Source: Chrysomallon squamiferum (Eukaryota > Animalia > Mollusca). From it: a stretch of 64,000 nucleotides of DNA. The notes beneath the pieces are model-generated. The model was not told where the DNA came from, ran no database searches, and saw only the letters and a program-made list of their open reading frames with translations. A program made the translations under genes and the position numbers. The DNA lies in NCBI GenBank assembly GCA_012295275.1, contig CM022671.1, positions 3,534,001-3,598,000 on the forward strand. Direction: 5' to 3'. Positions 3,201 through 55,810 of the stretch are shown here, one piece after another. Every line of letters begins with the position of its first letter. Position 1 is the first letter of the stretch.

Positions 3201-6200
3201 CATATTTTTGTGGCCTGTTTTTTTCCTCTTGTCCTTTTATTTTTATTTTTTATTATTATTTTTTTATCTCATAAAATTAAAAAAAATATAACAGAATATA
3301 TGTCATCATTTTTAAAAACACAGAAGTTACTTGTTTCAAGTTACTCCAGTTTAAAATGTCATCCAGTAGACGAGGGACTTTAAATTTTACTAATGTGATA
3401 TATACAACTGTAGAATTTATTTTCAATGTGTTTGATTTTAAATACTGACTCCTATTTTACTGATTTTTTTTATTTTCCAGTGCATTTGAAAGTATCATAA
3501 GTCACGTACAGTTACTGTGGGAACTTGTTCTTATAGCAGAAGTAAGATTTGTTTGTTGTACTTATATACTTGGTTAAATTCACTGGATTCTCTATCCACT
3601 TTTTTTCTATGAGTAGCTGCATTTTTCCCCCTCCTCCTCCTTACTCTGTCTATCCATGTAATTAAATATGTGTTTGTGTATGTGAAATACACTGACATCC
3701 TTCTCACACTATTTAGCTGTGATTTATAATTTTAATTGTGTATATTTATAAATCAAATATTTTAGGTTAAATTTTAATTTTAATACCTGTTCAATCAATA
3801 TTTTTGAATGATTAACACAATCATTCTGAGAATTACACCAACTTATTTTTGACTGATATCCCAATACTCAATATATTTTTATGTATTTAATCATATTCAT
3901 TCATCCATCCTTACGTTCATTTGTTCATTTCTTCTTTTTTCAAAAAATTTCAGCCAATTGTTGTTATGGCAGCATCACCAACAGTAACATCAAATTGTGT
4001 TCAAGCATTGATTAAGTATGAATATTTTAAAAAGTTATCTCAGAAATATTTTATGTCATGTTGCATGATGTTTATATATTACTGAGTTAGTGATATGAAT
4101 TATTAGCTATTGTTATTTCATTAAAACTGTATGTTTTAATAGTCAGTATTGTAATAGTTTTAGACTCAGTCTGTTTTGTTAAGTGCTAATACTCTGTTTT
4201 ATTTATGTTGTACTCAATATGTATTGTAATAATTTTTGGACCTAATCTGTTTTGTCAATTATTAATAGTCAGTACTGTAATATTTTTAGACTTACGTCTG
4301 TTTTCTCAAGCTTTAACAGTATTGTAATAGTTTTTAGACTTAGTCCTAATAGTCTTGTAACCGTTTTTAGATTGTTTTATTGAGTCCTAATACACAGTGT
4401 TTTGAAGGTTTTATACTCAGTATGTATTGAAGTAATTTTGGACTCAGGCAGTTTTGTCAAGTGTTATAACTCAGATTTGTGAAGTTTAAGTACTTAATCT
4501 AAGTAGCAGAATTTAACTTTTCAGCATTTCATATTGTTATTTTTCATTATTTAGTTCTTATATTTTTAGTACACAGTATCTGTTGTTTTTGTTATGGTTT
4601 TGGTTAAATTTTTATTTGTTTATTTATTTATTTATTTTTTTCATTTGTTTATTTATTTATTTAATTTTGACTGCTTAGTCTCTTTATTTATATGATTAAT
4701 AATTATGTTTTGTCACTGTTTTGATGTTGACAGTTTGATAGCTCCGTTGAAGTACTGTTCAGACTTCAGGCCTTACTTCACAATTCATGACAGTGAGTTT
4801 AAAGAGTACACAACGAAAGTACAAGCTCCGTAAGTGTCAACAAAAAATTGTTTTAAAATATTTTAATAAATCAAATGTTTTAAATAAAAAAAATTAATTT
4901 AATATCCATTCAATTAAGATATTTATTATAATTTCATTGTTGTTGTTCAACACACTGTTTGTAAATGGTTCTGCATAGTTTATAAATTTAATATGTTTGT
5001 ATTCTTTTTGTAACGTAATTGTTTCACATTTTGTTTCTTTACTTTTTAATTATTTATTTTATTATTATTTTATTTTAACCTCAATTTCAATAACATTTAA
5101 TCTTTTATATTGTAACCAAAAAATTCAGTTTGAGAAATGTTCTTAATAATTTTATTTATGTATTGCAGGCCTTCTATTATTCTTGGAGTCACAAATCCAT
5201 TCTTTGCAAAGACATTACAACATTGGCCCCACATAATAAGGATAGGAGAGATGGGAGCCATAGGTAAACATTTTTAAATAATTAAAAACATATAGATACA
5301 TATTTATTGGAATAATTTATGCACTCACAAGATTGGCTCATGCTGCAATATTTTCCTTTGTCAAAAAACATGTAACATCTGACAGGTAATATTAAAATAT
5401 TACAGGTGTGTTAAACAGATTAATTAATTCATTCATTTTATCATCAAATCAAACTATATGGATTTATCCTTATGATAAAAACATAATTTCATTTTAAATT
5501 GTATTCAACAGTCACTGGATAAATATTCATTCAGTCATTTCATAAAATTGATTAAAATTAAATATTTTAGTGAATGATATTAGTTTTCAAGTTTTGTAGT
5601 ATTTGTTTTAATTTTAAATTTATTATTTCAGATATTTTCTTTTGTTCTTAATTTATTCTTTTTATTTTCATTTTTGGTTTCTCTTAAGTATGTTTTAAAA
5701 TATAAGATTCTGTTCTGCATTCATAGTTTTACACATACACACACAAACGTGCACGCATACACACATTCTTGCTTTCTTGCACACACATATATACACACAC
5801 ACATTAAAACACTATTCCTTATCCATTTTCTGCTTGTTACATTCAGCTTTGAATCTAATACTGGATTTCTCAAAAATACATTTATTCTCAGAATAGTAAG
5901 TTGAGAGTACTTCTTGACTAATGTTGATGCATTTGTTGAGTTCAGGTGCTGATTTCTAACATTTGTATAATGCTTTAGCAAACACTTATACAGTTAATTA
6001 TAGTTAATTATAATTAACTACACATAATCATTATAGTTTTAAATTTTACTTATTCCATGTGCAAATCCTGTAAAAATTTACTAATTATCTTTGTGATAAT
6101 TACTTAACTGATTTTGAGAACTAAACAAAAATGAATTAATATTCATTATGATGTAATTACACTCATTTTATTATTATTATTATTAGTTTTATTTATTTAT

Positions 6201-10425: not shown

Positions 10426-10494
10426 TTTTAGTTTGTTTTCACAGATAACTAAAACCGTTTTTATCTCTGAATCTCCAAGCATTGTATTTAACAA

Positions 10495-11040
10495 GGCTCT
10501 CTGTTGAGTGTCAGAACATTGTTTTATGATGGTCTCTGCTGTGTAAGAACATTGTGTTTTATGATCTCACTCCTGAGTGTCAGAACATTGCTTTTAGGCT
10601 CTCTGTTGAGTGTCAGAACATTGTTTTATGATGGTCTCTGCTGTGTAAGAACATTGTGTTTTATGAGGCTCTCTCCTGAGTGTCAGAACATTGTTTTTAG
10701 GCTCTGTCCTGAGTGTCAGAACATTGTTTTTAGGCTCTGTCCTGAGTGTCAGAACATTGTTTTTAGGCTCTGTCCTGAGTGTCAGAACATTGTTTTTAGG
10801 CTCTGTCCTGAGTGTCAGAACATTGTGTTTTATGAGGCTCTCTGCTGTGTCAGAACATTGTGTTTTATGAGGCTCTGTCCTGAGTGTCAGAACATTGTGT
10901 TTTATGAGGCTCTGTCCTGAGTGTCAGAACATTGTGTTTTATGTGACTTTCCATTGAGTTTCGGCACATTGTGTTTTAAGAGAGTACTGAGTTTCATAAC
11001 ATTTTGTCTGATGAGGCTCTCTGCTGAGTGTCAGAATATT
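10495..11040 (+). repeat. 33/38-bp minisatellite (gctctgtcctgagtgtcagaacattgt(g)tttt(atg)ag) just downstream of the DENND6 stop
   Basis: About 14 visible tandem copies of the tgagtgtcagaacattg-like core, starting about 70 nt after TGA. Confidence 0.95.
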
Positions 11041-26898: not shown

Positions 26899-29584
26899 GG
26901 ATACAAAAATAGATAGCAATAATAATAAAATAATAAAATAAAAACACCAATAATAATGATAACAGTGGTAAAGAAAACATTAGTAGTGGTTATAATAATA
27001 ATAATAACAAGAATAATAATAAGAAGAATAGTAATAACTGCTTTCTGTAATCAAGTAAATGTTAAACTATAAATTTAGAGAAATATTTGCAAAAATATCA
27101 CTGAAGTTGTATTAACAAAAGATGCTTCGTGTATATTTTAACCAAATATATAAACAAAGAAAGAGTAATATATATGTATACCAGTTGTGCTTTGGCCATT
27201 GATTTAGACCATGATTGGACTACAGTTTTAAAATAGACTAATAACTATAACAAAACCTACTGGGTTAACTATTTATTTTTTTTTTGTTTTATTTTATTAA
27301 ATAAACTATTTTACTAGCTTTGAATGAAAGAAAAGCGGAGGTGAGGGTCCAGTTTCGTGAGGTTGCCGGGGACATTTTTCCTCCTGGTGAGGTGAAGAGG
27401 AATGAGCTGGTGATCAGGGTGCAGCCAGACGAGGCTGTCTATTTGAAGATGATGACGAAGATGCCGGGGATGTCAATCGAGTGTGAGGAGACTGAGCTAG
27501 ATCTCTCCTACAAGAACAGATATATGGTAAATATACAGATAAATTATATCATATTTAACAGATATATGGTAAATATACAGATAAATTATATCATAATTAA
27601 TAGATGTATGGTAAATATGCAGATAAATTATATCATATTTAACAGATATATGGTAAATATACAGATAAATTATATCATATTTAACAGATATATGGTAAAT
27701 ATGCAGATAAATTATATCATAATTAATAGATGTATGGTAAATATGCAGATAAATTATATCATATTTAACAGATATATGGTAAATATACAGATAAGTTATA
27801 TCATATTTAACAGATATATGGTAAATATACAGATATATGGTAAATATACAGATAAATTATATCATAATTAATAGATGTATGGTAAATATGCAGATAAATT
27901 ATAGCATATTTAACAGATATATGGTAAATATACAGATAAATTATATCATATTTAACAGATATATGGTAAATATGCAGATAAATTATATCATAATTAATAG
28001 ATGTATGGTAAATATGCAGATAAATTATATCATATTTAACAGATATATGGTAAATATACAGATAAGTTATATCATATTTAACAGATATATGGTAAATATG
28101 CAGATAAATTATAGCACATTTATATTTTAGATGATATCTGTACAGATAAATAATAGCACATTTATATCTTAGATGATAACTGTACAGTTAAATTATGTCA
28201 TAAATAACAGATACATGGTATATACAGGTAGATTATAGCACATTTTTATCATAGATAATAGATGATAACTGTACAGATAAGTTATATGTGGTAAATGTAT
28301 AAATTGCAGTTCATTATATCACTGATAATAGTTTTAAAGTAAATGTTCCATTACATCATATATACTAGATACATTGTAACTATGCAGATATAGTATGGTT
28401 TATCTTAAAACAAATTTAATGATAGAGATGCTGACTTCTCTTTAACTAATATATTATTTAAATTTAATTTATTTTGCTAGCATTTTATAATTTACAGATT
28501 AATAAAAATAAGTTTCAGCATACATCAGTATGGCTGTATTTTTTCTTGTTGTTATTTGGTGTGTTTTTTTTATACAAAGATTTTATTTAAAATATAAATC
28601 TCCATTTTGATAGAAGTGGTATCCACTGAATGAATTCATTTACCAACATTGTTGCAACAAAAGACAGACATCAAACAGATTTATTGACAATTAATAGTTT
28701 TTGCCACATTTCAAAAAGAGTCTAGTTTCAGCCATGGTCACCATATGTTAATTTTATGTAAATATATTTTTATGCTTTAATAAAAAATGAACAATATTTT
28801 CTTCAGGGAATCAAGATGCCTGATGCCTATGAAAGGCTGATTGTGGATGTGTTTATGGGCTCTCAGATTCATTTTGTTAGGACAGACGAACTGTCAGAAG
28901 CATGGAGAATTTTTACTCCTCTTCTTCATCAGATAGAGAATGAGAAACCAAAACCATTGCCCTATATTTATGGCAGGTGAGCTAGAGGTGTCATCAGTGA
29001 TTTTAGTATTAAAACAGATATTAAATATTAGCACTAATATTTCATGTAAAATGAGAAACCAAATAAAAAATAGTGTAAAATTGTCATCTTAAACTAATTT
29101 TTTCAGGTCTGGTGGCATAAAAAGACCAAAATATAAAAATAAAAATGAAACTGCATAAAACATAACATAGCATAATAATAATTAGTAAACAAATAATTTT
29201 GAAAATAACAAAATGTATTTGCACTTTTTGTTTGGATCATCACAGATACATATGAAAGAAATAAAATAATAATTTACAGCATTTCTCTGCTGTTTCTTTA
29301 CTACAATAACATTTTGCGTGTGTTGTGTGTGTGTGTGTGCGTGCATGTGTATGTGTGCAGATTAAGTTATATACTGTATTTGTGTTACTTTTATTATTGT
29401 AATGTTCAGTCGAGGACCACCAGAGGCTGACAAACTGGTTGCTAGACATGGCTTCAAGTACACTGGGACATACAGATGGAACCAGGAATCCTCATCCAGT
29501 AGTTTAAGAGGACAAGGTTCAATACCTCTTGTTTCAGTGCAGCCGGTAGGTTCACTTCAGGGAGGACAAATGTCCAGCTTTTGA
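18042..29584 (+). CDS. G6PD: Glucose-6-phosphate 1-dehydrogenase, 12 coding exons, 543 aa
   Basis: Exons 18042-18164, 18884-18921, 23224-23332, 23994-24202, 24791-24952, 25522-25647, 25808-25901, 26184-26310, 26689-26778, 27318-27526, 28807-28976, 29410-29584 (sum 1632 nt). Motifs: GASGDLA dinucleotide-binding fingerprint, [14 protein letters not shown], the active-site peptide [37 protein letters not shown] and PDAYERL. Confidence 0.97.
19485..19499 (+). promoter_or_regulatory. Consensus antioxidant response element (Nrf2/CncC-small Maf) in G6PD intron 2
   Basis: ATGACTCAGCAAAAA matches RTGACTCAGCA with an AT-rich 3' flank. Confidence 0.55.
20502..20725. repeat. Direct duplication of an approximately 77-nt block in G6PD intron 2 (period about 147 nt)
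   Basis: ttcttttaaatttacc(t/a)tgaaatgataat...tagtacttga(c/t)tgaagat(a/c)tgcttg(a/t)agataa occurs at about 20502 and about 20649. Confidence 0.85.
22755..22920 (+). mobile_element. Degenerate SINE-like fragment in G6PD intron 2
   Basis: ggatcagtcctgcttggtg...gctat...gtgtgctgtcctgtgtaagggaaagtgaat matches the 26380-26500 copy (gaatcagtcctgcttgatg...tgtgctttcctgtttatgagaatgtgcat). Confidence 0.5.
26352..26610 (+). mobile_element. Degenerate SINE-like repeat copy in G6PD intron 8
   Basis: Shares the core g(a/g)atca..cc...tgggcta.t.tc..ttccagcc...tcca.aactgg.ttatcaaa.g...g.tatgtgct.tcctgt with other copies in the window (about 52020+, 22755+, 38230-, 56380-, 17238-). It resembles a gastropod tRNA-derived SINE from memory. 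Confidence 0.65.
27515..28130 (+). repeat. 42-bp minisatellite (gtaaatatacagataaattatatcatatttaacagatatatg) containing the G6PD exon-10 splice donor
   Basis: 7 full units at 27527-27820, one 19-nt unit at 27821-27839, 6 full units at 27840-28091, then degenerate copies to about 28290. Confidence 0.97.
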
Positions 29585-35749: not shown

Positions 35750-36774
35750 ATGTCGGCTTACGTTCCTAATTCCTCATCGAGGGATAGTAAGTCTAGCTTC
35801 TGGAAAGCCGGAGCAAGCGTACCTGGAAGGTAGGCAATGGCATTTTAATACTAAGTTCATGAAAACGATGCACAAGAAATAAAAATCTTCACTTGTTGTT
35901 AAATTTCTGGAATTTTTTAGCAATGTCTCCATCGTATTTTTTCGGCATTAATCACACAGTTTACAATTTAATAAAGTCTGAAAATAAGCAGGTACATTAT
36001 TGTTATAGAACATAATATTAATAGTAACACGCTTAATGACGTACGCATCACCATACGAAAGCGTGAAAAACTACAGAATAAGAATTCTGAATTGCAAAGG
36101 CTATAACTTGTATAAGTATAATTAAATGTTGAATAACAAAAGCCACCCTATTTTATTTTCTACTTTTCCAATATGTGCTACATTCGTTTTTATATTTTTC
36201 AAATGAAAATAAAATATTGCTATTTAATTATATCGTATTTTATTTACATTGAAGTAAAATTGTTAAGGTAATTTCCGTGACCCAGATCCACTTAAATTTT
36301 TGACACTAATGACAACTATTATTAATAGTTATTTTCTTTTATATAATCATAATGATACTGACTGTTATAAAGCAGTTAAAATAACTGTTGTAAATTCAGT
36401 AAATGCTTGCTTTAAAGAACTAATGGTTAATGACAAATGCTGAAGTAGTCTGTAACTTGTTAGTGTTAATTATAATTAATGAAATTTGCTAGTTATTATT
36501 TTATATATTAATATGTATATGTATAATTAAAAATGTAAAAACAAAGTAAATTAATAATTATATAAAGGCCCATGACTAAAGAACATTGTACTTATAAAAA
36601 TAAATACCTAAAAGAAAAAAAAAGCACAGAAACAAATGACATTGAATTATTTTAATGTTATTATAATTATTATATTTTTTGTATGGTGTTAATCCCAGTT
36701 CTTTCATTTGATTAAAAACAAGTGCTGCATCTGAAATTCTTTATTTGAATGTCCTAAATATAATATTTGAAAAG

Positions 36775-36811
<37 letters not shown>

Positions 36812-39800
36812 GTTATAGACACCTTTATTTCTAGTTACAATTAAGTTTACTGTACAATGTTGAATTTAATATTTCATAAACAGATTTTATTCTGAAATTC
36901 AAAACGTTGTTCTTCTTCTTATAAAATCACTGTTATGTTACACGTTTTAATGAATATTTTCCTTAAAAATAAACATTCTAGTTCATTTAAAGTCTTACCC
37001 TGATATTTTTTATCATTGTCTGTTTAAACTTTATTGTAACAGAAGTTAAAAGGGCAGTGTAAACATTTCTTTCAGTATTAAACCAGTGTATGGAGCACAG
37101 CATCCTCCTATGACACACAAACCCAAAGTGTAAGTATATCTTATATTATTTTTAACATTTAATATCACTTTTGCAAACTAAAGAGAATAAAAATAAAAAG
37201 AAGAATGTAATAAATAAATGAATAAATGAATAAATGAATAAAAGAATATAATAATAAATAAATAAATAAAGAATAATAAAAATCCCAGAAAATAAAATTT
37301 CAGTCTAAAAAGATTCATAGAAGTAGTATTGTTTTCTATTATTTAATATCAGAGAGTTTACACCTTTACAAACACTTCTGCAAAGAGAAAACAAAAATTA
37401 ATAATAAAAGAAATTGTGAAAATGCAAAATAAAAATATTTATTGAAGTAAATTTTAATTCTGATACTTCTTTTTTAAGTACTTTTTTAAGTTTAAATTGT
37501 AAAAAAAATTTGATTCATCAATTAATATTTACATTCAATTTATTCTCTGTGTGTGGCAACTTTTATTTTTTGTATTTGTAAAGATTTAAAGAGGAAAGAA
37601 ACCCAAAACATTCATTTCTTCTGTGCAGTGAAAATATGCATCTTCAGTATGCATATCAACAATATGAAATTTATTAAATCAGTATTATTGGAGGTTACTT
37701 TAAATCAGCACTGCAGGGCATCTTTGTACATATCATATTATATGCTTTCATAGTATAAAGTTTTTATTGAAATATTTTCAGCAGAGAGTCACCAAAGAAA
37801 GAAGAGAAAGTTCGTGCTAACAAACATGACGCTTTTCTCAACTTTGAGAACAGCACCTCAGACGCCTGGGATGATGGCGATGATGATCTTCTTCAGATGG
37901 CCAGTGTCCAGATGTCACTGCGAGACGTCCGGTCATCAGCAAACACTGTCCTTGAGAACCACAGCAAACAAATAGGTTCTCACAGCCAAACATTAACATC
38001 AGGTCTGTTGTAGAATGAAGTGAGAAACACCATACTGATAAATGTTTAACACAACTCTAATCAAAACTCATATCCTATCAAACATTTATTTATAATTAGC
38101 TGTGTAATTAACAAGAAAGATAAGCTTTTGAAACTGCACAATGAGCTGTTCTATTGAAGTTACCTGTAAAGGAAGATGTCTGTACTACTTCCTTTGGGCA
38201 GCAAAGCATATAATCTCAATTTCATTTTTAAATCAGTTGTGGAATGATATTGGAATGGAAAGTAACCCATAGGTTGACAAAGGATGATTGATCCTGCACT
38301 ACACTAAATATCAAGCTATTAAGTGATGGATGTTGATTAAAGTTAAACTTTAATTTCATACTTGATTATTTTTACATTTTATTTGTCATTTTATCTGGAA
38401 ACTTTACAGTAACTAAAATAAACTTCAAAGTAGTTAAAGAAGATGTTCTGAAGATATCTGTTCATTTCATTAAAGATGCACTTAAGTGTTAAATACAGAT
38501 GTATTTGACAAGTAGTTGTTTCCTCGCAGATGCTGATGTTACAACATCGTCAGGCTCCACACATGGACACAGTGGAGGTGGTCCAGGAGTTGGGGTGAGA
38601 CTCAACAGCTACAAAACACCAAAAACTACTCATGTGTGCTGTGTTCAGCCATCCGTGTTAGACAGGGAGGCTTCCAAAGTTGAAAAATTTAAATCACTTC
38701 TTGCTGAAACTAACATAGATTTAGGTAAGTGTTATACAGAGTTTGCTTACTTAGAATTGATAACAAATAAATTATTAATACATCTGTAACATCTTACTAA
38801 ATATAATAGTTTCATATATTGATTATTCAAGAAAAAAATCTTGTGTCAGACCTTTTTTTTCTTCTTATTTTAAGTTATTGTTTTGCTTATGTTAATGGTT
38901 ATTAGTATCAAACATATTTTTTATAGGTTTTTAATGAAACTTTTAAAGAAAAAAAATGCTTTGAGTTATAAAAATTAATTATCTTCACACACACACAACA
39001 AAAAAAAATAAAAGAATTGTTTTTAATAGGAATGATTACAGTGGCTAAATGTAGAGATTTGTGTTTCAGATGAACTAAGGCAGCTAAGCTGGTCAGGTAT
39101 CCCCACCTGTGTCAGACCAGTCACGTGGAAAATACTTGCTGTAAGTTTTAACTGCCACAAGAAAATTAGAATTGTTGTCAGGAATTTCTTCCTATTCTTT
39201 TTTTTATTTTATTTTATTTTTTTTGAAGAAAAAAAGAAAGTAAAGGTTAACTTTGGAAGATCAAGAAAGAAAACACATAGTCACATGCACATTTAAGTTA
39301 TTATTGCTCGAAATACAAAGATATTATTTGGTTTATTTTTTATTTTCTGAAAAGGTTTTAGATTTATCAATATAATAAAAAAAAAAAATTGTTCTATGAT
39401 TTCTGTTAACCATATGGTTTCTTTTAGATTCGATTTGTGAAAAAACACACATTCATAAAAATAAAATAATAAAAATATATTGATGCATGCAAATATACAA
39501 AAATCACAGTTTTTTAATTTTCATCATTTCTAAAAATCTGTTACAAATTTCTTACAGGGCTATCTTCCTCCAAATGCTGACAGACGAGAAGCAACGCTGG
39601 AGAGAAAGAGAAGGGAATATTTTGGTTTTATTGACCAGTATTACGAAACCAGGCATAATGATATGCATGCTGATACTTTCCGACAGGTATGTCATATTTT
39701 TATAAATCTTTATTGTAACGTTTAAATCTTTATCTATTAAGAATTTATATTTTTAACAGAACAAATGTTATGATAAAGGATATTAAAATTTTGTGGGTAA

Positions 39801-41842
39801 CGTTTTAGGGTTGCTTATCAGTTCTCTAAATTTTCCAACATAGTAGGACCTTTATTATATAATGTCTCATTACTCAGAAATGTTTCATTTGGAAGTAAGG
39901 CTATTGACATAATTATTTGTAATTTTTGTTTTGTTTGTTATGTGTGGAAGAAAACCCATAATGAAATGATAATAATCTAACAAGCACAGGTTTTTTTTTT
40001 ATGAAATGTGTTTTTAAAACATAAATTTTGGCCTGGCATAGAATGATAGATTGAATTAAATATTACATTTGACAAAACATATGAAAAGATTTTTGAGTGT
40101 ATTATGTAAGTTTTGTATGTTTATTTTGAATGTTCTCACAAATGTTAACAAGAATAGTCAAAAAACAGAAAAAAAAAAAGATTACTATAAAATACTTTGT
40201 TTTACAGTATAAGAGTTATATTTTGACTAATTTTATTTATTTTTGGCTTTTGTTTTATAAGTTTCTAACTGACTGCATTTTATATATTTATTTCATTTCT
40301 TTTTTTAAAAGTACATTAATTTGACATTTTTAGAAATTAATTTAGTTATTTAATATGCAGATCCAAATTCTGCAAGCTTAATGAAAGCTATCTGATTGCT
40401 ACTGAGAAATTCATCACAAAAAGAAAAAAAAACTAAGAACCAAGATAATTAGTGCTTGAAGCATTTTTAAGAAACCTCAGTGCCAATAAGATGTCATCAT
40501 TTGATTAAAGCATTTAAACCTTCTGTTGCTTTTATTTTTCATATCTTTTGCTTACTAATTATTACATGTATTATTATCATTCTTTTTGAAAAAAAATTAA
40601 AATGTTTATACACCTTTTTCTTTGGGATGATAACTCCACGTAATGTATTGTTTTCTTTGATTAATTAAGCAAATTCTCATTTTAGGAACTAATAATTAAT
40701 TTGTTAGGTCAGGTATTCTTGTATATTTATTTAATTTTTTTTTTTTTTTTTTTTTTTTTAAATCTACATACCCATAGTGTATCTTAACATTTACCTTTAA
40801 TTTTCCTCTTCTTTTTTTGTTAATTTTTTTTTTTTTTTATATTTTTGTTTTAGGTTTATTTTTTATTATTTTTGTTTTGTTGCTTTATTTTGTGTTCTTG
40901 TTTATCACCATATTTTGAACTGATAAGAGGAGGCGCCATCTGGTTTTGTTTCAGATTGCTATAGACATCCCTCGAATGAACCCCCTCATTCCCATATTTC
41001 AGCAAGATGTAGTGCAAGAAGTGAGTAATGGTTTAATGGTCAGGGTTTTTATTCTACTTAGCCCACACCCAGTATTGTGATAATCTTTTTTTTCTCTCAC
41101 ATCACCACAAGTTTCACAAACACCAACAAATAAACCAGTTTTGAACAAAAAGTAAACATAAATAATAATATTTGGAAATAATCAAGATCAGAGATTTAAA
41201 AAAAGAAAAGAAAAAAAGAAGTTATAATAAAATTATAATAATAAGCAGATATTTCTGAATAATGACAAACAGATTACAAAATATTTTAAACATTTGGAAC
41301 TAAATTTTACCATCAAATTTCATTTTGGTCTTAATAGATGATTTTCATTTCTGACAAAATCCCTACTTTCCCTACGTCTCTGAATCATTTTGGTGAGCAG
41401 TTTTACAAATATTAAATTTAACTAGTTTTTAAAAATATTTTTGTCAAGTTGGTTTCTGTGAACACAGTGTTGGTATGAAAGAGAAAGACTGTCGCAGGGT
41501 AGGTACATCAGTGTTTCTGGGTGTTGTAATGGTTGGCATTTGTAACTGGCCATCGCTGTCCATCTGTTATTTTGCAGATACTAAAAGACATCCCACGCAT
41601 GACCACTCTAGCACATTTGATGCAACATAAGGTTATCCAGCAAGTGAGTATGGTGTGAGCAGAGAACACTGTGAGTCTCTCCGCTCTGCAAAACCTTTGA
41701 TTTGCTTTCTCTTGTAGCAGAGCTTCAGCACAGATAATTAGGTAGATACTCACTAATTAGCACCATAACGATGGTTTTGTTAATAACATTAAACAGTAAT
41801 AACTATCTGAATTGTAACAACAGATGTGAGACTTTTTCTTAT

Positions 41843-41879
<37 letters not shown>

Positions 41880-41929
41880 TAATAATTGTATACTTTCAAA
41901 TGATGTTCCTTCTTCCAGGTCTAGTATTT

Positions 41930-41962
<33 letters not shown>

Positions 41963-44900
41963 TTAATAATAGTTTAATAACAGATGTAATGATAATAAAA
42001 TGTATTTTTCTAACAATGACCACAACAACAAATAAATAATCATTTATATACTTCTCAGTGATTGTTCATTCTTATAATAATAATAATAATAACAAATTAA
42101 TTGTCATTTTGTATATTTACAAGAGTTTGTTCATTCCTGTTGAACTAGCCTTTTCTAATAATGAAGTTTGACAGAATCTTTCATTGTGTTACATTTGTTT
42201 GTAACAAGAACAGTAATAAAACAGTTGTAGCAGTGAACACAAATGTAATACTCTTAAAGCATGAATCCAATCCCATGAAAATTATTGCACCAAATTATTT
42301 ATTATTTACAATAATTATCTTGGGTAGAGAGAGATAAAAGTTCCCATTAATGAAGATGTTGTTATCTCTACATAATTATTATTTTATAGATAAATTTCTC
42401 TTACATGCTTTATATATTAATTTCTCTTACATGCTTTATATATTACTAAGATGGTGTACCTTTCAGATTTTCTTCTTTTAGCTGTCTGATAAAATTACTT
42501 CAATTAATTCCGCATAGTAATTTATTTTTTGAGATAATGTAAAATAGAGATTGTTAAAATGATTCAGTTCTGTAATAAGTATTTGCTTTGCTTTACAAAT
42601 TGCACAAACATACACATACACATGCAAATGTGATGATAAATATACATTAACAGATAATAAATATAATACCTACCAGATGTTAACACACATTAACATATAC
42701 ATACATAAGTACATGCAAAAATAGATACATTATATATATTCATGTATACAGACACACATGCTAGCACAGAAATACATACATGCATACATTTATGCATTCA
42801 AACAAATAATATTTTCTTGTGTTGTTTTTAGTTTTATTATTTCTTTGTTCAGATACTTATTTCTCTTCTAGTAATAATTCTGTGATCTTTATTTTGTACA
42901 CATTTCTTTATGTTGCTTTTCAGTCTTTGAGCTAATTGCCAGTCTATTTTAATAATAACAACTGCCAATTATTTGTAAATTGGTTTGCAGATTATATGCT
43001 TTTTTAATCTGGTAATACTTTATATTAAATATATAAATAGATAAATAAATAAAATATAATAACAAAAAACCACAGAACATAACTACATTGTCCAGAAACC
43101 AACCACAAACAAAACAAATCTGTCCAGCAATTCTGAGTCAGTTTTAAATACATTTATATAATTTGATATTTTACAAAACAAAAAATGAAGCCTCAGATTC
43201 AGATCAAGGACAGATGTAGCTATTAGACAGAACAGGCAGTTAGTTACATAAATTACTAACATTTTCATCACTGAATTATTATTAATGTAATAAACTTACA
43301 TTGCATATTAAGAAGTCAGCTAAAAAAATACCATAAATTATTAAGGATTATTTCAAAACTTGAAATGATAAAACAGTATTGCACTTTGTCATTCATTACC
43401 TTACAAGAACAATATACTGTCTAAGGAAGAATAGATCCATCTTATATTAGTTTTAAATTTGGAAGTAGATAACAAAAAAAAGTTTGTATTAATTTAACCC
43501 TTAGAACCTAAATGACCTCTAAAAAGAACAGGCTGTTATGTGAGGAATACCTTCAGTTTATTTCAATCACAGATTTGAGAAACTTGTGAGCGAAATTTTC
43601 CCACTTTGGAGAGCCAGTTCTGAGCTCTTCATTATTATATATGTCAGGTCCCAAAGGGTTATATTTTTTAAATTTTTACAAAATTGTAAAATATTTAAAA
43701 AAATGATTTTTTATATTTTCATATGGTTTTAAAAAAAATTGTTGAATGTTTGAATAATTTAATAGTGACATTGTTTATTTCAAATATCCTGTATTGTAAT
43801 AGTAATGAAATATAACTGAGTATATTTAAAAGTTCAGTTGTAATTATGCCAGTCTTTAGAAATACTAATGTTAGCAGAATTATAATTGAACATTTTGAAT
43901 ATTTTAGTACTTACAGTGAAAAAAAATTGTTTATGTAATAATAGTAAAAATATATATATGGGCATTTTGAACATTTTAGTATTTGTTACCCTTTCAAGTT
44001 ATTAGTTTAGTTTAAGATAAATGTTCTGCTATTGTATTTAATATTGAATGTTTTATTTTACAGATATTTGAGAGAATTTTGTTTATCTGGGCTATAAGAC
44101 ACCCTGCCAGTGGTTATGTCCAGGGTATAAATGACCTGGTCACTCCATTCTTTGTTGTGTTTCTCTCTGAGTACATCTCAAATGGTAAAAACTGGTTTTA
44201 TTGTTTCAGTCACATTTTTATATCTAATAATTTTTTAAATCAGATATTTTTTTTGCAATCATAATTTATTTTTCCTTTCTAAATTTCTTTTCAGTTTTAT
44301 TTTTTTTTGTCTCAGTTTTTTTTTGAATAACTTATTCACCTCTATGAAGGCCATGTTTGTAGATAAACACATTTATACAGACATTATTTTGTCAAGCAGA
44401 CACGTAATCTTGTGTCACTTTGTAATGGCTTCTTGTTCTCGTGTAACAAAAGCATCAGATATTGCATCATAAGTTTTGTCATTAATTGATTTTATATTCA
44501 TTAACAGTCATAACTGTTGTAGATTGAACAACTTGTTGATTTAGAAACTATTACGTGTTTGTTGCTGATTGTCATCTAACTGATATTAAGGAACATATTA
44601 TGACTTCATTATTTAAAATGTTGCCTGATGCTGTTTAGGTTGCAGTATCAGTTCCACTAATTTTTCCTACTGCATAGTTTCTCATTCTAATCAGTAATCA
44701 GTATCTGTTTTTTATGAAACATCATGACATATGAACGTCATTATAAAAGAGATTGCCTGTTATTAATTGTCTATAAAATGGTGATTCTGATTATCAAGCT
44801 ATTGTTTGGCCTGTAATAAAGTTAAAATAAATTTGTGTTTTTAAACAGATGTTTGTTTATTTGCAGATATCGAGGCTGATAACTGTGATTTGAAAGAACT

Positions 44901-45140
44901 TCCCAAAGCTACTCTTGATATTATTGAGGCAGACAGCTTCTGGTGCACATCCAAGTTGCTGGATGGAATACAGGACAACTACACATTTGCTCAACCTGGA
45001 ATTCAGATGAAAGTAAATGCACTGCAAGAACTTATTAAAAGAATAGATGGTAAGCCTCTGCTTAGAGATGCATTCTATACCTCTTTTAAATAAATGGTTT
45101 TATATCTCTTTTAAGAACACCAACAAAAAATAAATAAATA

Positions 45141-45172
<32 letters not shown>

Positions 45173-46792
45173 TTATAATTAATAATAAAAAGAAATATTT
45201 CTGTAAAATGCTTGAAACAAGAAAGATATGTTTAAAAAATAAAGCTATATTTTTAGATGAAAATTCGAAATTATTTTTTGAATATGATGGAAATTGGAAA
45301 TACATGCTAGAAAAATGCTGCACTTAAAAAAATTATGTTTGTTGACAAGTGGTTATTAACCCTTTTTTTTTTTTTTTTTTCTCAACATCCATTTTCAATT
45401 ATGTTTAACAGTTGGCATCTCATAGATTAAATTTGATTCTGGCCATAAAAGTACATTTACAATTAAACTAGAAGCATTTATAATAGATACATCATTTACA
45501 ACCCCTGTGTATTTTCACAGCACATAAAGCAGGTGCTACCATCCAGATTAAAAATGTATGCTGCAGTCTATTAACAGTGAATTTTCTTTGTCTTTGTGTA
45601 GCTCCACTTCACAAACACCTGGTCTCTCACAATGTTGAGTATCTGCAGTTTTCTTTCCGATGGATGAACAACTTGTTAATGAGAGAAATTCCTCTCAGGT
45701 GTACGATACGACTGTGGGATACCTATCTTGTATGTCACACACAAATTTTTTATTATCATTCATTTTACTTGTTTATTTATGAAATATTTTCTCAGCTTGT
45801 GTCAAAGATTTCATTTGGAGTTTAAAGAATTCCACTGCCCCTTTTAAAACATGACTTATCATATCATGATGACTGGGCATTTTTTAAAAAAGTTTTATTC
45901 ACTATTGTAGCCTTAAATCAACCATTTTGCTTTTGTAATTGACAAAAGCCCTGTGTCAGTTTATTCCAGAAGTCAAATTAATATTTTGTTTAGAATTGCA
46001 AATAATAAACTTTATTGTATACATAGTTTTGTTAACTGGTTAATTATAAATGTGATATATCTCTGTATTTGAAAAAAAATTAATTTAATTTTTGTTTTGT
46101 TTGGTGACTGATCATTTTCATTTTACAAATTATATATATATATATATATATATATCTTATTTTGTTTAGTTAAAATATAAATAATTTTAAAATTTCAGTC
46201 TGAAGTAAATGGTTTTGCTGATTTTCACCTCTACGTCTGTGCCTCTTTTCTTGTTCAGTTTTCTTCTAACATTTTACGTGAAAGAGATTTCCAGGTGTGT
46301 TCTTAGTAATCTTCATCCAAATTATATTATGTTATTTAATTTATTTAAATTTTATTAACTATTCGAATTGTAACTAATTTTCTATCAAATTTAAATTATT
46401 TCTTTCTCAGATTTTATTTAGTTAATAAAATTTGATTAAATTTTATTTGTATTTTGTTACTGTTTTTTTTCTCCAATTTTAATTTTTTATATATTTTTTT
46501 TTATTCAGATTCATCCATCTATTTTATTTTATTCAATTTCAGTGATAGGTTTTATTTAATTTTATTTAATTACTAAGTTTTATTTATTCTCTATATTATT
46601 ATTATTTCTTTTTTTTTAAATTATTTTTTTTAAAGTTATTTAATCTTGTTTTGCCAGGGAATCCTGATGTTTCTGCAAAACTTGCCAACCAGACATTGGA
46701 ACAACAAGGAGATAGGAGAAATCATGGCTGAGGCCTACAAATTAAAATACATGTTTGCAGACGCTCCAAACCACTTGATGAAAAAATCATGA
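35750..46792 (+). CDS. TBC1D22: TBC1 domain family member 22 (Rab GTPase-activating protein), 12 exons per isoform, 492 aa
   Basis: Exons 35750-35829, 37076-37129, 37782-38002, 38530-38724, 39070-39140, 39558-39686, [40955-41020 or 41578-41643], 44064-44184, 44867-45049, 45602-45729, 46199-46294, 46658-46792 (sum 1479 nt). Motifs: FWK..PGSIKPVYGAQHPP, TSDAWD, ELRQLSWSGIP, IxxDIPR, WAIRHPASGYVQGINDLVTPF, EADSFWC, QDNYTFAQPGIQ, QFSFRWMNNLLMRE, RLWDTY and YMFADAPNH. Confidence 0.95.
38230..38300 (-). mobile_element. Degenerate SINE-like fragment in TBC1D22 intron 3
   Basis: The reverse complement reads caggatcaatc...cctatgggttactttccattccaa...ttccacaactga, similar to the 26380-26450 core. Confidence 0.45.
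40955..41020 (+). CDS. TBC1D22: TBC1D22 exon 7a (arginine-finger exon, canonical-like variant) IAIDIPRMNPLIPIFQQDVVQE
   Basis: tttgtttcag|ATT...GAA|gtgagt, 66 nt, phase 0/0, carries the IxxDxxR motif. Confidence 0.92.
41578..41643 (+). CDS. TBC1D22: TBC1D22 exon 7b (duplicated arginine-finger exon, divergent variant) ILKDIPRMTTLAHLMQHKVIQQ
   Basis: tattttgcag|ATA...CAA|gtgagt, 66 nt, phase 0/0, open frame, same length as 7a. I..DIPRM and Q..V.Q are conserved. Confidence 0.85.
43498..43658. mobile_element. Possible piggyBac-type MITE remnant
   Basis: TTAA|CCCTTAGAACCT ... AGGTCCCAAAGGG|TTAT: short imperfect TIRs with CCC/GGG termini and a TTAA-like target site. Confidence 0.45.
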
Positions 46793-55249: not shown

Positions 55250-55810
55250 CTAGTAATGTTTTGTATAAGCGGTCCATATTGTCTAATAATGTTATTGTAC
55301 AAGCAACTAAATATTGTCTAATAATGTGTTATTGTACAAGCAAATAATACTTTTTCTAATAATGTTATTGTACAAGCAACTAATACTGTCTAATAATGTG
55401 TTATTGTACAAGCAAATAATACTGTCTAATAATGTTATTGTACTAGCAACTAATACTGTCTAATAATGTGATTTTGTACAAGCAACTAATACTGTCTAAT
55501 AATGTGATTTTGTACAAGCAACTAAACACAGTCTAATAATGTTTTTGTACAAGAAACTAAATACTGTCTACTGTGTTTTTGTACAAGCAATTAAATATCT
55601 AATAATGCATTTTTGTACAAGCAACTAAACATTGTCTAATAATGTGTTTTTGTACAACTAAATATTGTTTAATAATGTGTTATTGTACAAGTAAATAAAT
55701 ACTGTCTAATAATGTATTATTGTACAAGCAAAATAAATACTGTCTAATAATGTATTATTGTACAAGCAAAATAAATACTGTCTAATAATGTGTTATTGTA
55801 CAAGTAAACA
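55250..55810. repeat. About 36-bp minisatellite (tctaataatgtgttattgtacaagcaactaatactg)
   Basis: Roughly 15 tandem copies of the ttgtacaagcaa / gtctaataatg core. Confidence 0.95.

Follow-up and report, generated by a model that had tools for sequence, protein, structure and literature searches.

Exons 7a and 7b of the TBC1D22 gene of the mollusc Chrysomallon squamiferum are tandem copies of the arginine-finger exon of a Rab-GAP, and there is about an even chance that the choice between them is steered by a predicted three-part pre-mRNA structure, in which a long intronic rod is combined with a pair of helices, P1 and P2, crossing each other and enclosing the two exons. The helices lying outside the exons are more informative elements than the intronic stem on which the first-pass annotation of this DNA had centred. 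Missed there, they are predicted to lie over the splice sites on which selection of a single exon depends.

The window, this being the whole 64-kb stretch analysed, is A/T-rich animal DNA. Exons were mapped by tblastn with a mollusc TBC1D22 protein (P0121), and the exon at 44866-45051 matched mollusc TBC1D22 proteins, the closest named relative being Gigantopelta aegis (92% on one exon). The Pfam domain PF00566 was found in P0121 and in the three isoforms of the relative, and PDB matches for the product were TBC1D22B, TBC1D22A, and Gyp1. Membership in the TBC1D22/GYP1 Rab-GAPs is supported by a TBC domain holding both the IxxDxxR and the YxQ fingers, the latter as YVQ in exon 8; IxxDxxR is the arginine finger of TBC domains, the roles of the motifs being those given in excerpts of PMC11101121. 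The gene and its exons of interest are as follows:

35750-46789, plus strand: coding span of the TBC1D22 gene (Rab-GAP TBC, GYP1 family), with exons mapped across it by P0121
39558-39686, plus strand: constitutive exon 6, whose 3' end, otherwise loose, is connected with 7b by RNA contigs from runs X7 and X8
40955-41020, plus strand: exon 7a, 66 nt, IAIDIPRMNPLIPIFQQDVVQE, ancestral-type arginine-finger exon, of a type found across animals
41021-41577, plus strand: intron between 7a and 7b, 557 nt, GT-AG, phase 0, as read from the sequence
41578-41643, plus strand: exon 7b, 66 nt, ILKDIPRMTTLAHLMQHKVIQQ, derived arginine-finger exon, present in spliced 6-7b-8 contigs of X7 and X8
44064-44184, plus strand: constitutive exon 8 with the YxQ finger, whose start, otherwise loose, follows 7b in the contigs of X7 and X8

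Elsewhere in the window, a glucose-6-phosphate dehydrogenase exon (27305-27532, PF02781) lies upstream of TBC1D22 on the same strand and is directly followed by a 42-nt minisatellite (27515-28245); tandem repeats occur at 10480-11040 (period 33) and 55276-55804 (period 36). No match to Rfam was obtained at gathering thresholds within the 64 kb.

Exons 7a and 7b are adjacent, of equal length and in phase 0, they share 70% identity over 44 nt comprising the acceptor and the exon start, and IxxDxxR is read in both. Splicing of 6-7b-8 was observed in one spliced contig in each of the two RNA runs of C. squamiferum. Neither a 7a-7b joint nor a spliced 7a appeared among the RNA contigs of these two shallow assemblies, in which 7a occurs only in low-depth unspliced pieces, and this is not evidence of its absence. 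Among 55 mollusc proteins, grouped in nine clusters, 24 carry the 7b type only, 14 the 7a type only, 13 both, and three neither, one being without the region; exactly one type is present in 38 of the 55, and 7a-only and 7b-only models co-occur in seven of the nine clusters, all these figures counting gene models and not reads. Two chiton models show the 7a type only. In a related species (organism B) both exons lie on one contig, and the six changes listed for 7b are all synonymous. Both exons are conserved across molluscs, with the pair kept in gastropods, bivalves, and cephalopods. The earlier reading of 7a and 7b as true tandem alternative exons is thus borne out by the sequence, the mollusc models, and the 6-7b-8 RNA contigs. 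Exclusion is probably leaky, because Gigantopelta, Pomacea, and oysters have RefSeq models in which 7a and 7b are present together.

Beyond molluscs, nemertean and brachiopod proteins (P0035, P0070, P0079) carry a further divergent exon version (IQKD..RM), which suggests that the second exon is older than molluscs. Oyster and scallop proteins (P0010, P0026, P0033, P0048) contain 6-7 extra residues (..LGLG..) just ahead of exon 7, possibly derived from a micro-exon or a shifted splice site. A genomic search for a read-through ORF across 7a gave a single, uninformative match. In metagenome scans the 7b pattern had no match, whereas the 7a pattern matched 36 loci, all of them lacking the mollusc-type pair; in one of the 36 (L007, fish-like, 3323-3948) two tandem exons follow each other in reverse order. 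A pair of this exon, of 63 nt and 66 nt in that order, is also present in vertebrate TBC1D22A, and since the ancestral type comes second, the shark and fish pair is likely to stem from a separate duplication; 12 of the 15 shark models listed (P0094, P0165-P0178) contain both exons. The L007 intron shows no rod comparable to that of C. squamiferum (90 of 150 shuffles were as good) and no analogue of P1 or P2.

The first-pass annotation had drawn a nested stem of five complementary blocks between the two ends of the 7a-7b intron, and all of them were found in place and paired as written: the first (41036-43 with 41546-53) in 8 of 8 positions with one G-U, the second (41065-72 with 41517-24) in 8 of 8, all Watson-Crick, the third (41076-88 with 41484-96) in 12 of 13 with two G-U, and the fourth perfectly in both its parts (41112-16 with 41476-80, 41122-28 with 41468-74). 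That annotation also held that a folding energy no better than that of shuffles would refute the stem, and the whole-intron fold, taken formally, does so (MFE -106.7 versus -103.5 +/- 6.0 for dinucleotide shuffles, 30 of 100 reaching it, z -0.53). Nonetheless, a whole-intron fold is a coarse test where a long-range rod is embedded in RNA rich in A and U, and tests at the level of the arms were used instead. Against 20-nt block shuffles, the advantage of the whole intron was modest (3 of 100 as good). Pairing of 41028-41210 with 41360-41560 reached -87.4 kcal/mol, a value that 300 dinucleotide shuffles never matched (z -6.2). When the intron was simply halved, so as to avoid any bias in the choice of arms, z was -4.8, and block shuffles that keep local composition equalled the rod in 0 of 200 cases in each of four sets (z near -4 to -5); the arm tests overall span z -4.3 to -6.2. 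The outer, middle, and inner thirds of the rod were each above chance in block-shuffle tests. None of 126 control windows of 557 nt showed as large an excess (-30.6 for the intron, -22.0 for the next), and a single one, the tandem repeat at 10480-11040, matched the low raw duplex energy of the rod. Sequence complementarity of the arms is, therefore, above chance, its role in splicing being a prediction. The long nested stem holds in this respect, although its registers differ from those originally drawn. The elements predicted within the intron are:

41065-41205, plus strand: 5' arm of the predicted rod, with helices at 41065-72, 41075-93, 41113-18, 41122-27, 41166-74, and 41181-95 (probabilities 0.66-0.98)
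41366-41524, plus strand: 3' arm of the predicted rod, resting on the arm-versus-arm, block-shuffle, and control-window tests
41529-41553, plus strand: local hairpin (41529-36 with 41546-53), 85-90% occupancy, whose loop ends in A 41545, the likely branch point of 7b

The predicted register is nearly constant from 41065/41524 to about 41205/41366 and reaches further in than the annotated stem. Only the second and third blocks persist in the predicted ensemble (0.91-0.95; 0.66 for the inner part of the third); 41113-18 and 41122-27, assigned to the fourth block, would instead pair with 41457-62 and 41448-53, and a side hairpin proposed at 41456-67 is not predicted, its bases being taken by the other register of the rod. 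The G-U pairs, formerly put forward as a sign of selection at the RNA level, are a weak one for the rod, the opposite strand reaching z -5.6 and G-U standing to A-C only as 21 to 13 (p 0.11). A strong pyrimidine tract followed by AG at 41084-41110 resembles a cryptic acceptor, and the rod is predicted to pair 41084-93 (0.66).

The proposal that the first block masks the 7b branch point finds no support in the ensemble. Strand 41546-53 pairs locally with 41529-36, and therefore the occupancy of the first block is 3-4% and the branch point at 41545 is largely free, its stretch being 83-85% unpaired; on its own, this block is not significant against shuffles (98/500). On the contrary, the claim that the stem draws the 7a donor near the likely 7b branch point agrees with the sampled structures, where a linear distance of 524 nt shrinks to ~40 steps (range 22-109), close to the steric threshold of ~50 nt quoted in PMC7969005. 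Considering these values, together with the rod being statistically the strongest element, the rod alone might enforce exclusion, as the first-pass annotation proposed and in a way similar to the steric-plus-structure model of Dscam exon 17, with the 7a donor too close to a partly masked 7b branch point and P1 and P2 incidental. We regard this as unlikely, as the masking block is hardly occupied, graph paths differ from the linear distances for which the threshold was measured, and the rod accounts neither for the choice of exon nor for the sequence beyond the two exons, which is GC-rich and invariant. Moreover, excerpts of PMC4691745 report that a stem bridging intron ends can also promote splicing, and therefore blocked 7a-7b joining is not implied by the stem alone. 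Other routes to exclusion were ruled out, namely (i) a distant branch point of the OGDH type, which needs a branch point within ~50 nt of the upstream donor and a stretch free of AG down to the acceptor, given the 524 nt of linear distance and the 30 AGs of the intron, 28 of them from +20 onwards and the last before the acceptor at 41510, (ii) frame-based decay, both exons having 66 nt, and (iii) a U2/U12 clash, both donors being GTGAGT.

Outside the exon pair, scans of splice-site regions across 39688-44063 placed the best partner of the 7b donor just upstream of 7a and that of the 7a acceptor just downstream of 7b, defining P1 and P2, respectively:

40872-40884, plus strand: 5' strand of P0, a weak outer extension of P1 whose partner is 41759-41771 (pair probability 0.88-0.91; 12/300 shuffles)
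40892-40915, plus strand: 5' strand of P1, predicted partner of the 7b donor region (pair probability 0.84-0.97; 0/500 targeted shuffles)
40920-40955, plus strand: 5' strand of P2, comprising the likely 7a branch point (A 40923, placed by consensus only), the pyrimidine tract, and the AG, in a predicted 30-bp duplex with 41685-41720 (1/500 shuffles)
41646-41669, plus strand: 3' strand of P1 in the predicted duplex, which takes in positions +3 to +26 relative to the 7b donor
41685-41720, plus strand: 3' strand of P2 in the predicted duplex, with an alternative local hairpin (41683-89 with 41717-23)

Predicted P1 has 23 bp (19 Watson-Crick and four G-U) and two 1-nt bulges. When best partners were sought 1 kb each way for 22 splice-site regions, P1 and P2 were the two strongest (-27.4 and -27.6; next -22.2) and also had the two lowest z values; each is borderline once corrected for the search (1/30 and 2/30), and both were found after the fact. 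The partner of each helix adjoins the strand of the other. In P1 and P2 together G-U stands to A-C as 8 to 0 (p 0.004), a strand bias towards RNA. Both helices enclose the exons, none of their strands lying between them, and they cross, their 5' strands being only 4 nt apart and the extension of P1 overlapping the outer end of P2. From this layout we infer that P1 and P2 exclude each other, crossing helices being beyond what the folding program can model. Local hairpins compete for the 3' strand of P2. Forcing the P1 or the P2 state changes mean splice-site accessibility little, and the fold of the whole cluster was better than block shuffles only in 6/60. Both acceptors contain CCATCTG (40936-40942 and 41560-41566) at nearly the same distance from the AG; with it, a small hairpin over its own AG is possible at each acceptor (0.93-0.96), and organism B keeps the motif before 7a. 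A further local hairpin is possible just after the 7b donor (41654-41690), joining the 3' strands of P1 and P2; in organism B, inspected by eye, another hairpin lies in roughly this position.

Natural variation was drawn from six runs of C. squamiferum (four DNA-like and two RNA), which yielded two further haplotypes. No variant was listed in 41021-41089, 41445-41577, or 41644-41763 in the six runs, and the 202 outer-arm bases of the intron showed none, as against 31 variable places in the 355 inner bases (41090-41444; p 8e-7), counts that are lower bounds, contigs hiding rare variants and differences near piece ends going unlisted. Within the inner part, the intron centre (41193-41444) is highly polymorphic, haplotypes differing there by numerous indels and by the replacement of 80 letters, and variants are many at 41364-41444. 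Some rod variants keep or improve pairs (41131, 41162, 41400), while others break predicted inner pairs (41090, 41407, 41420, 41444). The single variant seen in P2 turns A-U into G-U, and the three in the partner of P0 also keep pairing; C-to-T and A-to-G changes, however, keep pairing by default, and most such compatible variants therefore carry little weight. Rod energies were similar in three haplotypes (-86.5, -84.0, and -86.3) and beat random variants only weakly (20/300 and 79/300). A hint of compensation in the inner stem of haplotype beta (2.3 kcal/mol) was equalled by 20 of 300 random sets and was not counted as covariation.

The intron of organism B has an interior of 360 letters, versus 513 here, and gives no alignment at 80%. 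By eye, the 30 letters before the position of 41541 keep TTGT-ATGGTT, the start of the local hairpin, while strand 41517-24 is not kept; in the flanks, P1 is represented by no more than 6 bp, and a bulged pairing of 11 bp resembles P2.

Around alternative exons, flanks that are conserved and richer in GC would be expected in any case. Splicing proteins bound to conserved flanks might run the exon choice, with the pairing a by-product of GC-richer flanks or of an old inverted duplication and without a role, an explanation to which we give a low probability. Consistent with it, pairing of the rod is almost as good on the opposite strand, the whole-intron MFE equals that of dinucleotide shuffles, the rod cannot be aligned in organism B, and the fish tandem pair of L007 does without one; control by proteins only is, furthermore, reported for exon 3 of Rdl in excerpts of PMC13762713. 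Nonetheless, shuffles that preserve local composition leave the rod far from chance, and P1 and P2 are biased towards the RNA strand. A mobile inverted repeat was rejected, as no second locus for the outer arms was found in four DNA runs and the 20 window matches listed all fall on the A-rich centre. Highly improbable is a functional rod that, leaving 7a-7b joining unblocked, bridges the intron ends and aids splicing, or hides the cryptic pyrimidine tract and AG at 41084-41110: intron-end stems promote correct pairing in zebrafish and yeast (excerpts of PMC4691745), the both-exon RefSeq models of Gigantopelta, Pomacea, and oysters would fit, and the rod does pair 41084-93, but no 7a-7b joint occurs in the RNA contigs, exactly one exon is the rule in most mollusc models, and inclusion of both would put a second 22-residue finger segment inside the catalytic domain.

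In the preferred reading, that of a switch formed by the rod, P1, and P2, P1 would cover the 7b donor and favour 7a, while P2 would cover the branch point, pyrimidine tract, and AG of 7a and favour 7b. As the two helices cross with 4 nt between their 5' strands, and local competitors exist for each strand, usually only one would form; binding of U1 at the 7b donor would block P1 and allow P2. The rod, by folding away about 460 nt, would bring the partners of P1 and P2 together, and, by drawing the 7a donor towards the 7b branch point and acting with the branch-point hairpin, it would disfavour 7a-7b joining. The nested ensemble favours the P1 state by 6.7 kcal/mol, predicting 7a, yet both RNA runs show 7b only; a working switch would therefore need U1 or proteins to tip it, and this disagreement counts against a purely thermodynamic model. 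Exclusion is likely to be leaky, and models of relatives with both exons in or both out are as a leaky two-helix switch predicts.

Among known systems, the predicted switch would act in the manner of serpent and ATE1, both of them tested precedents, while lacking a feature that defines each of the two layouts. For exons 4.1 and 4.2 of Drosophila serpent (srp), bidirectional pairing was demonstrated by compensatory mutation (this and the following srp details from excerpts of PMC4691838). As there, the present cluster has two exons from tandem duplication, no single shared docking site, and two crossing long-range pairings, in srp a possible pseudoknot, of which each favours one exon in srp and is predicted to do so here. 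Unlike here, the space between the srp exons contains two of the four elements, and either stem causes one exon to be looped out; in TBC1D22 all four predicted strands lie outside the pair, each helix sits on a splice signal, and a separate rod fills the intron, so that looping out of one exon through a between-exon element was not found, P1 and P2 having no strand there. Human ATE1 exons 7a/7b (R1R3/R3R4 and R2R5), as described in excerpts of PMC7797038, likewise use helices that overlap splice sites and hide one exon at a time, together with a separate long-range module, and loss of pairing gives double inclusion in ATE1; R3, however, is a shared strand contested by two acceptors, whereas here no strand common to both helices was found, an acceptor being the predicted target of P2 and a donor that of P1. 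For Dscam exons 17.1/17.2 (Yue et al. 2013), judged by title and by the sentence citing it in PMC7969005, structure is combined with closeness of donor and branch point, which is also the role proposed for the rod; in TBC1D22, however, the two sites are 524 nt apart in the linear sequence and would come close only through the predicted rod.

The likeness to the Dscam1 exon 6, 14-3-3zeta, and Mhc clusters suggested at first is not supported. Docking-site/selector clusters (Dscam1 exons 4, 6, and 9, 14-3-3zeta, Mhc, and MRP1) also have intronic pairing around tandem exons, but their mechanism requires a single docking site, with which the selectors of the individual exons pair alternately (excerpts of PMC6071210), and scans of 39688-44063 with both acceptors and both donors found no shared docking site, the best partners being different. 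Neither the 7a donor nor the 7b acceptor had a partner above chance among the 22 splice-site regions, and CCATCTG was rejected as a selector, having no complement in the flanking introns, from exon 6 to exon 8. Zebrafish AC/GT introns (excerpts of PMC4691745) resemble the rod in their complementary ends, with a C/A-rich 5' arm and a G/U-rich 3' arm, but those are simple repeats that promote splicing, while the rod is non-repetitive and lies between alternative exons. TBC1D22 is absent from the text and one supplementary file of PMC9741552, whose other supplements could list it, and literature searches, with most subscription papers and supplements outside their reach, returned no paper on TBC1D22 tandem exons or on mollusc structures of this kind. 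We tentatively suggest that no compared case has the same layout, in which P1 and P2 would enclose the exon pair and hide the 7b donor and the 7a acceptor, no docking strand is shared, a rod would fold away 460 nt, and the choice would be between two versions of the catalytic arginine finger of a Rab-GAP.

Control of either/or exons by RNA structure has been worked out mainly in insects and in a few human genes. The either/or type of RNA switch is already known from flies and humans, and what is likely to be new in this mollusc variant is the predicted pair of crossing helices, P1 and P2, around both exons. If true, a compact layout would be added, of less than 1 kb and about six strands, easily tested in a minigene. 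It would bear on the question of what keeps tandem exons that preserve the frame from being included together where decay and short distance are both unable to prevent it, and it would point to an overlooked, conserved swap of a catalytic helix in a Rab-GAP.
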